19,783 nucleotides of DNA from a virus (lineage: Duplodnaviria > Heunggongvirae > Uroviricota > Caudoviricetes), in the IMG/VR virus record IMGVR_UViG_2778261691_000003, positions 1 to 19,783 of that record; one strand, 5' to 3'. The position numbers were made by a program, and so were the translations under genes. The notes under the pieces are model-generated. The model worked only from the letters and a program-made list of their open reading frames with translations. It was not told the DNA's origin and made no database searches. This document shows, one piece after another, positions 10,422 to 12,786 of this stretch; the first letter of the stretch is position 1, and every line of letters starts with the position of its first letter.

Positions 10422-10505
10422 TTGTTAATTTTCCAATAGTGAATAGTTAGTTGAAAGGTATGCGTGGAAACGCATATGGCCTTAGTTGGTCAGATATCTT
10501 GGGGC

Positions 10506-10551
10506 TCGCTTTGTCAGCGACGTAGGACGAATGTCCATTGTGAAAAGAGCG
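10506..10551 (-). promoter_or_regulatory. nutR-like site (boxA CGCTCTTTT, boxB hairpin with UGACAAA loop)
   Basis: Minus strand reads CGCTCTTTTCACAATGGACATTCGTCCTACG-TCGCTGACAAAGCGA between cro and cII; the boxB loop matches the P22/21-type boxB recalled from memory, not lambda boxB. Confidence 0.55.
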
Positions 10552-10558
10552 GTGTTAC

Positions 10559-10759
10559 TTATGCAGTTGTTTTTTTGTTACTTGGAAAGGGCTTTACCTC
10601 TTCCGCATAAACGCTTCCATCAGCGTTTATAGTTAAAAAAATATTTCGGCCTGCATGAATGGCCTTGTTGATCGCGCTTTGATATACACCGAGATCTTTA
10701 GCTGTCTTGGTTTGCCCAAAGCGCATTGCATAATCTTTCAGGGTTATGCGTTGTTCCAT
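10559..10759 (-). CDS. cro: Cro repressor
   Basis: 66 aa, [65 protein letters not shown], essentially lambda Cro. Confidence 0.95.
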
Positions 10760-10783
10760 ACAACCTCCTTAGTACATGCAACC

Positions 10784-10853
10784 ATTATCACCGCTAGAGG
10801 TAAAATAGTCAACACGCACGGTGTTAGATATTTATCCCTTGCGGTGATAGATT
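10784..10853. promoter_or_regulatory. right operator region: OR1-OR2-OR3 with divergent PR (towards cro) and PRM (towards cI)
   Basis: OR1 10786-10802 (TATCACCGCTAGAGGTA), OR2 10810-10826 (CAACACGCACGGTGTTA), OR3 10832-10848 (TATCCCTTGCGGTGATA). PR -35 TTGACT and -10 GATAAT on the minus strand; PRM -35 TAGATA and -10 TAGATT on the plus strand. Confidence 0.85.
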
Positions 10854-10859
10854 TAACGT

Positions 10860-11573
10860 ATGAGCGCAAAAAAGAAACCATTAACACAAGAGCAGCTTGA
10901 GGACGCACGTCGCCTTAAAGCTATTTATGAAAAAAAGAAAAATGAACTTGGCTTATCCCAGGAATCTGTCGCAGACAAGATGGGGATGGGACAGTCAGGC
11001 GTTGGTGCTTTATTTAATGGCATCAATGCATTAAATGCTTATAACGCCGCATTGCTTGCAAAAATTCTCAACGTTAGCGTTGAAGAATTTAGCCCTTCAA
11101 TCGCCAGAGAAATCTACGAGATGTATGAAGCGGTTAGTATGCAGCCGTCACTTAGAAGTGAGTATGAGTACCCTGTTTTTTCTCATGTTCAGGCCGGGAT
11201 GTTCTCGCCTGAGCTTAGAACCTTTACCAAAGGTGATGCGGAGAGATGGGTAAGCACAACCAAAAAAGCCAGTGATTCTGCATTCTGGCTTGAGGTTGAA
11301 GGTAATTCCATGACCGCGCCAACAGGATCCAAACCTAGTTTTCCTGACGGGATGTTAATTCTGGTTGACCCTGAGCAGGCTGTTGAGCCAGGTGATTTCT
11401 GCATAGCCAGACTTGGGGGTGATGAGTTTACCTTCAAGAAACTGATCAGGGATAGCGGTCAGGTGTTTTTACAACCACTAAACCCACAGTACCCAATGAT
11501 CCCATGCAATGAGAGTTGTTCCGTTGTGGGGAAAGTTATCGCTAGTCAGTGGCCTGAAGAGACGTTTGGGTAG
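10860..11573 (+). CDS. cI: CI repressor (lambda immunity type)
   Basis: 237 aa; near-identical to lambda cI over the whole length, including the [24 protein letters not shown] and the C-terminal autocleavage domain; translation starts on the near-leaderless PRM transcript as in lambda. Confidence 0.95.
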
Positions 11574-11760
11574 AGGCGAAGCAGCAATTGGTTTGATTTG
11601 GTATTGCTATTTTTTCTCTAAAGTTGTTGAGCATTTTTCCGGTAGATAAAAATAGACGCAAATTTACATGATTTTTTGTGCTGTATTGCTTGCTGAAAGC
11701 TAGGTTTTGCGTAAACTTCAATTACTCAAATTAGAGTAAACAACATATAGGACACCCCAC

Positions 11761-11982
11761 ATGAAAAAATCTGCAAAGCACTTTTTCAGCGCTATGGGCT
11801 CTATCCTTGACCTTTGCCCAGCAGGTAGCTACAGCGAGTATCATTCAAATGCTACAGACATCGACCTTATCAACTCAGATTGGGTTAAGGTAGGTAGTTA
11901 CGTTAGAGACGCTGTAACTGATAATGAGCAGAAAAAAATCCCAAAGAAAGCTTCAAACCGCCGCACCGAGAAATCTTGTTAA
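11761..11982 (+). CDS. hypothetical protein, ORF-A of the rex-slot cassette (likely N-terminal part of a frameshifted gene)
   Basis: 73 aa ORF with AGGA 8 nt upstream of the ATG; ends 58 nt after the start of the overlapping ORF-B; an A7 tract at 11932-11938 lies in the overlap. Confidence 0.45.
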   Translation: MKKSAKHFFSAMGSILDLCPAGSYSEYHSNATDIDLINSDWVKVGSYVRDAVTDNEQKKIPKKASNRRTEKSC

Positions 11983-12457
11983 CCAACCAACTCCGTTAGG
12001 GCGAGTTCAAGACGGTAAAACCGAACTGCTTATAAATGAGGTCGCAAAGAACCCTCAAGTTCTTGAGCGCCTCATGGACAGGCCAGATCTAGCTGGCATC
12101 ATGATGCAGGTGACTCACACTAGATCAGGGCCACTCCCAGACGCTGACGAATTAGCTAAGTACGAAAGAATATCTCCAGGATTCGCTCGCGAAATAATGG
12201 ACATGGCTAAGGCTGAGCAAAAACACAGACACGAGTATTACAAAGCAGGACAGAGGGGAGCAATTTGGCGAGATCGACTCGGACAGATCTTTGCGATGAC
12301 TTCTGTCTTTGTTTTCGCAGGAATTGCTTACAAGATGATTCAGCACGAGGCTTATGGCTGGGCTACCGGGCTTCTTGGTGCTGAGTTAGTTGCTTTAACT
12401 AGCGTGTTTATAATTGGAAGAAGAGACAAACCGAATCCAAAGCAAACTAAAAAATGA
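11924..12457 (+). CDS. membrane protein with two C-terminal TM helices (DUF2335-like motif), ORF-B of the rex-slot cassette
   Basis: 177 aa in the +1 frame relative to ORF-A, with no obvious RBS of its own; motif PLPDADELAKYERISPGFAREIMDMAKAEQKHRH followed by hydrophobic helices LGQIFAMTSVFVFAGIAY and GWATGLLGAELVALTSVFIIG. Confidence 0.55.
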   Translation: MSRKKSQRKLQTAAPRNLVNQPTPLGRVQDGKTELLINEVAKNPQVLERLMDRPDLAGIMMQVTHTRSGPLPDADELAKYERISPGFAREIMDMAKAEQKHRHEYYKAGQRGAIWRDRLGQIFAMTSVFVFAGIAYKMIQHEAYGWATGLLGAELVALTSVFIIGRRDKPNPKQTKK

Positions 12458-12460
12458 GAC

Positions 12461-12489
12461 AACCCGGCCTCAGCGCCGGGTTTTCTTTG
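12461..12489 (+). terminator. rho-independent terminator ending the cI / rex-slot transcription unit
   Basis: Stem AACCCGGC / GCCGGGTT (8 bp, 6-nt loop) followed by UUUUCUUUG. Confidence 0.7.
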
Positions 12490-12640
12490 CCGCACGTTCG
12501 CCCCAAAACACATAACCAATTGTATTTATTTGAAAATTAATAGATACAACTCACTAAACATCGCAATTCAGATCTCTCGATCACCTCCCAAGCCACACAC
12601 CCCTGCAAAAAAAATAAATCTATATAAAAAACATACAGAT

Positions 12641-12703
12641 AACCATCTGCGGTGATAAATTATCTCTGGCGGTGTTGACATAAATACCACTGGCGGTGAT
12701 ACT
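12641..12703 (+). promoter_or_regulatory. left operator region OL3-OL2-OL1 with pL promoter
   Basis: OL3 12641-12657 (AACCATCTGCGGTGATA), OL2 12661-12677 (TATCTCTGGCGGTGTTG), OL1 12685-12701 (TACCACTGGCGGTGATA); -35 TTGACA 12675-12680, -10 GATACT 12698-12703; these match lambda OL/pL, and the sequence diverges from lambda downstream. Confidence 0.85.
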
Positions 12704-12771
12704 AAACACATCAGCAGGACGCACTACTCACCAGGGCGGTGAATATACAACGATTCGAATATGAATCTACG

Positions 12772-12786
12772 GCGCTGACAAAGCGC
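12772..12786 (+). promoter_or_regulatory. nutL boxB-like hairpin (GCGC-UGACAAA-GCGC)
   Basis: GCGCTGACAAAGCGC lies ~70 nt downstream of pL; same loop as the nutR boxB here and as the P22-type boxB recalled from memory; no clear boxA found. Confidence 0.5.

Follow-up and report, generated by a model that had tools for sequence, protein, structure and literature searches.

Phage lambda supplies two precedents for the early-control region described here, which occupies positions 10422-12786 of a viral DNA stretch of 19,783 nucleotides (IMG/VR record IMGVR_UViG_2778261691_000003; Caudoviricetes); this whole 19.8-kb stretch is called the window below. In the imm434 and imm21 hybrids of lambda the immunity cassette is exchangeable at conserved flanks, and in the N/nut system of lambda each early operon has a boxA-spacer-boxB site through which the N protein works. 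The window obeys the same logic in both respects, although a lambda boxB is found in neither of its leaders and its N matches that of lambda only weakly. The theory of modular evolution is reportedly due to Botstein (1980).

The closest described systems are those of coliphage HK97 (AF069529 / NC_002167), for whose early control region Juhala et al. (2000) is said to be the reference, and of mEp234 and HK106 (EF120460, EF120461), wild lambda-immunity phages for which Degnan et al. (2007) is reportedly the reference. HK97 shares with the window cI, Cro and the OR alleles (100% at the protein level, with the same OR1 variant), nutR, cII, a gene-18-like O and a DnaB-like P, as well as OL/pL, nutL, the N leader and N (98%), and both of its joints between the shared modules are identical to those of the window. 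It differs in carrying gp48 and gp49 between cI and the terminator Timm, and some of the genes downstream of N are other ones; its record annotates cI, Cro, OR and N. The mEp234 and HK106 sequences agree with the window at 97-98% over 10123-11577 and 12460-13333, but their rex slot holds hicA, hicB and one open reading frame (ORF), and a few substitutions separate them from the window in the nutL spacer hairpin (GATTCAGAGATGAATC versus GATTCGAATATGAATC) and near the cII start. The GenBank record of mEp234 annotates oR1-3, oL1-3, pR, pRM, pL, pRE, Timm, nutR boxA and boxB, nutL boxA and boxB, and N at homologous positions.

Comparison with these systems leads us to conclude that the region is very probably the early-control centre of a natural mosaic lambdoid phage or prophage of the HK97/mEp234 kind, and nothing was found that contradicts this explanation. 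An earlier account drawn from the letters of the window without database searches (the sequence-only reading) had described lambda cI, cro and operators flanked on both sides by nut sites and an N of non-lambda type, which is what the alignments show. Every feature that it listed is present at the coordinates given. The interpretation is partly supported: it was right in substance about the hybrid and wrong about the donor, the position of the joint on the pR side and the novelty that it implied. The arrangement is already known as the structure of HK97, mEp234 and HK106, all of which carry the same hybrid, set out feature by feature in the mEp234 record. It exemplifies, in textbook fashion, how modules are exchanged at conserved boundaries.

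The lambda-type immunity module and its joints

The window runs in the opposite sense to the conventional lambda map. The + strand carries cI, a two-ORF cassette, OL/pL and N, with pL reading rightward, and the - strand carries cro, cII, O and the gene of a DnaB-like helicase. Every ORF of the region has its full length. The window was compared by local BLASTN with a set of reference loci (lambda J02459, H-19B AF034975, phage 21 OL657228, P22, HK97 AF069529 and mEp234 EF120460). Lambda matches in the region only at 10085-10187 (oop and the cII 3' end), 10545-11569 (cro-cI, 98%) and 12461-12742 (Timm to the pL start, 90%). HK97 matches 8491-11577 unbroken (93%) and 12465-13333 (98%), mEp234 10123-11577 (97%) and 12460-13333 (98%), and H-19B 10085-10566 (90%) and 12462-13331 (82%, with operators and leader apex diverged). 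The match to phage 21 is confined to the cII region (10085-10452, 94.6%), and the P22 DNA matches in the region consist of 71 nt at the N 3' end (75%), 94 nt in cI (70%) and 35 nt in the oop region. Aligned with lambda, P22 and phage 21, the nut sites and N of the region are not lambda-type, and the hybrid interpretation stands.

Judged by their sequences, cI, cro and the six operators are a lambda-specificity immunity module. The repressor, in which the Pfam domains HTH_3 and Peptidase_S24 were found, has 2 substitutions relative to lambda cI (99% identity) and none relative to cI of HK97 and mEp234 (100%); Cro has 65 of its 66 residues in common with lambda (98%) and is likewise 100% identical in HK97 and mEp234. 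OL1-3, OR2 and OR3 are exact lambda 17-mers. The sequence-only reading had matched precisely these five operators, cro and cI to lambda and had correctly left OR1 out: OR1 is TACCTCTAGCGGTGATA, one nucleotide off lambda (G-to-A), an allele common to HK97 and mEp234. The promoter hexamers stand at the lambda positions, and the tripartite OR and OL arrays overlap pR/pRM and pL. The OR1 change, Cro K39N and the two cI substitutions are alleles of wild phages (HK97, mEp234) and not of laboratory lambda.

As we reconstruct it, the exchangeable unit comprises cI, cro, OR1-3, OL1-3, pR, pRM and pL. One of its edges is the 14-17-nt pL-start sequence, which is conserved among lambdoid phages, and the other is the cro stop with the adjoining boxA patch. 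On the pL side, lambda-type sequence, to which H-19B is unrelated, takes in the operators and the -10 hexamer (to 12703); the first H-19B-specific base is 12726, and the sequence is H-19B-type onward. Between them lies the left joint, CATCAGCAGGACGCACT, whose first 14 nt, CATCAGCAGGACGC, occur exactly once, at pL +1, in six of six phages (lambda, HK97, mEp234, H-19B, P22 and phage 21). The crossover thus falls 6-23 bp downstream of the pL -10, in keeping with the earlier claim that the junctions lie within about 50 bp of the -10 regions of both early promoters. For pR the same claim fails, as the right joint lies at the cro stop, and the pR -10 is about 220 bp upstream of it. In a three-way alignment of informative sites, lambda is followed there up to ...AAAAAAACAAC and H-19B from TGCATAAGTAACACCGCT... 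onward; similarity to H-19B stops at 10566, and similarity to lambda fades at 10545, within boxA. The patch formed by the cro stop, 6-7 nt and boxA is recognisably kept in phage 21 (GCATAAGCAAATTGCTCTTTAAC) and P22 (GCGTAAGCAAAACGCTCTTTACC). Both joints were probably made either by homologous recombination in these short conserved boundaries or by illegitimate exchange, after which functional joints were selected.

The antitermination module and its source

Outside the joints the immunity module is flanked by an antitermination module of H-19B/HK97 type: nutL, the N leader and N lie beyond the pL joint, and nutR lies beyond the cro joint. A boxA and a boxB in the cro-cII spacer and a boxB in the pL leader had been recognised by the sequence-only reading and are present (Table 1). 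Both nut sites have a CGCUGACAAAGCG boxB, and folding predicts for each a 5-bp stem and a GACAA pentaloop closed by U-A; the loop had previously been given as UGACAAA, in which the outer U and A are in fact the closing pair. In its loop and closing pairs the nutR boxB agrees with the nutL/P22 boxB, whose stem is GCGCU/AGCGC. The 13-mer CGCTGACAAAGCG occurs in exactly two copies in the 19.8 kb, one per leader and each in the transcribed orientation, against 0.04 expected by chance, and two matches to it were seen in none of 200 shuffles.

A lambda-type boxB (GCCCUGAARAAGGGC, which in lambda stands downstream of the boxA CGCUCUUA) was searched for and is in neither leader. The sole match to it with two mismatches, at 11778-11792 (-), lies outside the leaders. 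This hairpin, GCGCTGAAAAAGTGC with a GAAAA loop, lies within the beginning of the 73-aa ORF of the rex slot, on the strand antisense to the cI operon, and it is probably a product of chance, matches of this quality occurring at least once in 17 of 200 shuffles. The nutR boxA has the counterparts CGCUAUUUU (CGCTATTTT) in H-19B and CGCUCUUAC in lambda, and that of the window is closer to the consensus than that of H-19B. On the nutL side, the mEp234 record proposes CGCACTACT (window 12720-12728) as a putative boxA, which we reject: it agrees with the consensus at 5 of 9 positions, and lambda, in which the homologous CGCACTGAC stands at the equivalent place, uses the downstream CGCTCTTAA as its boxA.

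The leaders were also compared with those of H-19B (AF034975). Its pL leader is identical base for base from +1 to beyond boxB, and it has the same nutR spacer hairpin and boxB, nutR differing at a few scattered positions of which one is in boxA. In contrast, H-19B has its own cI, cro and operators, unrelated to those of the window upstream of pL +1 and within cro, and the apical part of its N leader is different. The long-range stem of the N leader (Table 1) stops just 5' of the Shine-Dalgarno/ribosome-binding site of N; H-19B has the same stem with a different apical sequence. We take this stem to be reminiscent of the RNase III-processed N-leader stem of lambda. A small 5' hairpin is predicted in the pL transcript at 12728-12742.

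The N protein of the window is 98% identical to N of HK97 and mEp234 and 97% identical to N of H-19B. According to tblastn, its family is widespread in Stx-converting and other coliphages, and relatives of 66-85% identity exist in Salmonella phages. Lambda N gives a weak match (E 0.011) over the arginine-rich motif and a (N/H)RP(I/T)LS stretch, which is presumably the NusA-binding region of lambda N. The match to phage 21 N is insignificant (E 0.013) and its alignment unconvincing; a comparison of the N sequence with PDB chains gave no meaningful match. The product of P22 gene 24, which the window N had been said to resemble, aligns by BLASTP over the C-terminal 30 residues only (63%), and a MAFFT alignment of gp24 (100 aa) with the window N (127 aa) gives 38% overall. 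The resemblance therefore extends to these last residues and to the arginine-rich motif, but not to the central 60 residues, which are unrelated. In the motif, GNSRSRRRERLKAKA aligned to GNAKTRRHERRRKLA, the G, N, RR and ER are kept, and the pattern F-GN-x3-RR-ER is common with gp24; this is suggestive of a protein that could read the P22 boxB.

P22 or phage 21 had been read as the donor. A direct recombinant of lambda with one of these phages, its N and nut sites taken from P22 or 21 through crossovers beside the -10 hexamers of both early promoters, would account for a nutL boxB (GCGCUGACAAAGCGC) identical to that of P22, for an N whose arginine-rich motif and C-terminal 30 residues resemble gp24 and for cII DNA 94.6% identical to phage 21. 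The alignments nevertheless refute this origin, which we consider highly improbable. The DNA likeness to P22 amounts to three short patches (71, 94 and 35 nt), and in the leaders it is limited to the shared pL-start segment and boxB. P22 has a different nutR boxB, CCGCCGACAACGCGG, and at nutL a canonical boxA, CGCTCTTTA, without spacer hairpins, unlike the window; its gp24 reaches 38% identity overall. The boxBs of phage 21 (nutL TCTCAACCTAACCGTTGAGA, nutR CACCTCTAACCGGGTG; annotated genome OL657228), with a long stem and a CUAACC-containing loop, are unrelated, as is its N. A right joint about 220 bp from the pR -10 does not fit such crossovers either, and the flanks are explained at 97-100% by HK97 and H-19B. 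The closest relatives of N and of both nut regions are HK97/mEp234 (98%) and H-19B (97% for the protein, with an identical nutL leader). Consequently, of the earlier description of boxB as P22/21-type the P22 half stands for nutL, and the phage 21 half does not. On sequence grounds 'P22-like boxB specificity' is a fair description and 'P22/21-type module' is not; N and nut are best annotated as H-19B/HK97-type with P22-like boxB specificity, and not as lambda-, P22- or 21-type.

The following scheme, for which the sequence supplies the anatomy, takes its mechanism from characterised homologues. When the lambda-type repressor is absent, pL and pR would fire, and the pL transcript would carry nutL and then encode N. 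The arginine-rich motif of N would bind boxB and, together with NusA, bring RNA polymerase into a termination-resistant form; N may recruit NusA through its central RPxLS-like region and modify RNA polymerase through its P22-like C-terminus. Transcription would then pass tL and tR1 and reach the recombination genes in one direction and cII and the replication genes in the other. The antitermination system formed by H-19B N and H-19B nutR has been characterised experimentally in vivo and in vitro (PMC3526286, PMC4499122).

Our interpretation of the region has its limits. A canonical boxA was not found in the pL leader, and because of this the host-factor requirements at nutL can only be inferred. 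The functions given to N, the nut sites and immunity are those predicted from sequence and annotation.

H-19B N reportedly requires NusA and not NusB, S10 or boxA (Neely & Friedman 2000), and this boxA-independence presumably fits a pL leader that is without a canonical boxA. The combination of lambda immunity with a boxA-less H-19B-type nutL and a near-consensus nutR boxA could make the two early operons differ in their need for NusB and S10, an idea that we regard as improbable. The swap of nut specificity might also, and in our view no more probably, have been selected as an escape of a lambda-immunity phage from boxB-directed exclusion, such as that by HK022 Nun.

Distribution of the hybrid and its integrity

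The two joints were followed with a 171-nt probe from OL3 to the nutL boxB (left joint, coverage of at least 80%) and a 201-nt probe from the nutR boxB into cro (right joint). Of 5426 complete E. coli genomes, 111 have the left joint and 118 the right one, so that the arrangement occurs in about 2% of them; 10 phage records also have the left joint. The OL-nutL joint of lambda itself was found in 488 genomes, some of them laboratory strains. Lambda immunity joined to an HK97/H-19B-type N is therefore not rare, with about one such joint per four to five lambda OL-nutL joints (111 versus 488).

These numbers bear on the chance that the hybrid is an artefact, whether a chimera of the assembly or a lambda hybrid (phage or vector) made in the laboratory. 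Lambda derivatives in which the immunity or N region has been exchanged are common laboratory constructs, and lambda imm21 and h434 imm21 were in the phage collection searched. But the same joints are carried by 111-118 complete E. coli chromosomes of varied source, at identities up to 100%, from humans, poultry, pigs, mice and sediment, and by the independently isolated wild phages HK97, mEp234 (Mexico), HK106 and PhiR5_2. At OR1, Cro (K39N) and cI, moreover, the window has the alleles of the wild phages where laboratory lambda has others. The probability of an artefact is, in our opinion, negligible.

A different concern is that the region could be a relic in a defective prophage, in which N and the nut sites look intact but are unused and their coupling to lambda repressor control has no present function. 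Among complete E. coli genomes and phage records, coverage of the 19.8-kb window is at most 56%, as expected of a lambdoid mosaic; this particular mosaic may not be a viable phage, and the cassette in its rex slot is unusual. We nevertheless think decay very unlikely. The ORFs of the region are not shortened, and the plaque-forming phages HK97 and mEp234 have the same cI and Cro (100% identity) and nearly the same N (98%). The operators, the promoters, the boxB hairpins and the N-leader stem are likewise intact.

The natural HK97/mEp234-like mosaic thus remains the preferred interpretation. Repressor control and antitermination are functionally separable cassettes, and swapping either leaves the other undisturbed; the combination is therefore viable and common. 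The significance of the region lies mainly in its annotation, and it offers a clean example of modular exchange in lambdoid phages.

Neighbouring features

Table 1. Features of the early-control region and adjoining genes in the window (positions refer to the whole stretch)
Feature	Position	Strand	Remarks
DnaB-like helicase gene	7741-9117	-	
P22 gene-18-like O gene	9114-9944	-	Phage_rep_O
cII-type activator gene, 98 aa	10125-10421	-	Pfam Phage_CII, E 5.9e-36
oop-type terminator	10149-10176		
nutR boxB, TCGCTGACAAAGCGA (UCGCUGACAAAGCGA)	10506-10520	-	Identical in H-19B, HK97 and mEp234; annotated as nutR boxB in mEp234
nutR spacer hairpin, GGACAUUCGUCC (GGACATTCGTCC)	10525-10536	-	Dyad between boxA and boxB; identical in H-19B
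nutR boxA, CGCTCTTTT (CGCUCUUUU)	10543-10551	-	Annotated as nutR boxA in mEp234
Right joint, last two cro codons and stop	10558-10567		Lambda-type on the cro side, H-19B/HK97-type on the nutR side
cro, lambda type, 66 aa, K39N	10559-10759	-	
OR region	10784-10849		OR1 10786-10802, OR2 10810-10826, OR3 10833-10849; pRM overlapping
pR	-35 10807-10812, -10 10784-10789	- (leftward)	Consensus scan
cI repressor, lambda specificity, 237 aa	10860-11573	+	Helix-turn-helix and S24 peptidase
Two-ORF cassette in the place of rexA/rexB	11761-12457	+	73-aa ORF overlapping a 177-aa DUF2335 predicted membrane protein
Timm-like intrinsic terminator, end of cI operon	12461-12482	+	Equivalent site annotated as Timm in mEp234
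OL region	12641-12703	+	OL3 12641-12657, OL2 12661-12677, OL1 12685-12701
pL	-35 TTGACA 12675-12680, -10 GATACT 12698-12703	+	Consensus scan
Left joint, CATCAGCAGGACGCACT, pL transcription start	12709-12725	+	Common to lambda and H-19B
nutL spacer hairpin, GAUUCGAAUAUGAAUC (GATTCGAATATGAATC)	12752-12767	+	Identical in H-19B
nutL boxB, GCGCTGACAAAGCGC (GCGCUGACAAAGCGC)	12772-12786	+	Identical to nutL boxB of P22 and H-19B
N-leader long-range stem	Arms 12797-12815 and 12920-12939	+	Fold z -3.8
N antitermination protein, H-19B/HK97 type, 127 aa	12952-13335	+	Pfam N_peptide, 57 bits (cutoff 27.9)

The slot between cI and Timm, which holds rexA and rexB in lambda, is filled in the window by a two-ORF cassette that is within the interval reported initially but outside the antitermination hybrid. 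By BLASTN the cassette is matched by none of lambda, HK97 and mEp234, and similarity to lambda and HK97 picks up again at the Timm-like terminator. Its 177-aa ORF belongs to DUF2335 (Pfam, E 1.4e-17); the 73-aa ORF matched no Pfam family, and PADLOC gave no match for the rex-slot ORFs or for a 149-aa ORF downstream of N. Together with both flanks the cassette was found in one of the 5426 complete E. coli genomes (strain PD7, NZ_CP074047). It is a candidate for an accessory or exclusion function expressed in the lysogen, and a prophage-encoded exclusion role of the DUF2335 protein is a possibility.

On the other side of the immunity module, cII is of the 21/H-19B/HK97 type (DNA identity 94.6% to phage 21 over 10085-10452 and 90% to H-19B over 10085-10566) except for its last ~19 codons, which, with the oop/tO region (10085-10187), are identical to lambda. 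A further mosaic joint is seen about 30 nt upstream of the cII start. The replication genes (7741-9944, -) are an HK97-like pair and not lambda O and P. At gathering thresholds, an Rfam search of the whole window returned two tRNAs only and no nut or oop family; these adjacent genes, tRNA-Thr(tgt) and tRNA-Asn(gtt), lie at 3956-4111 (-), on the late-gene side of the prophage.

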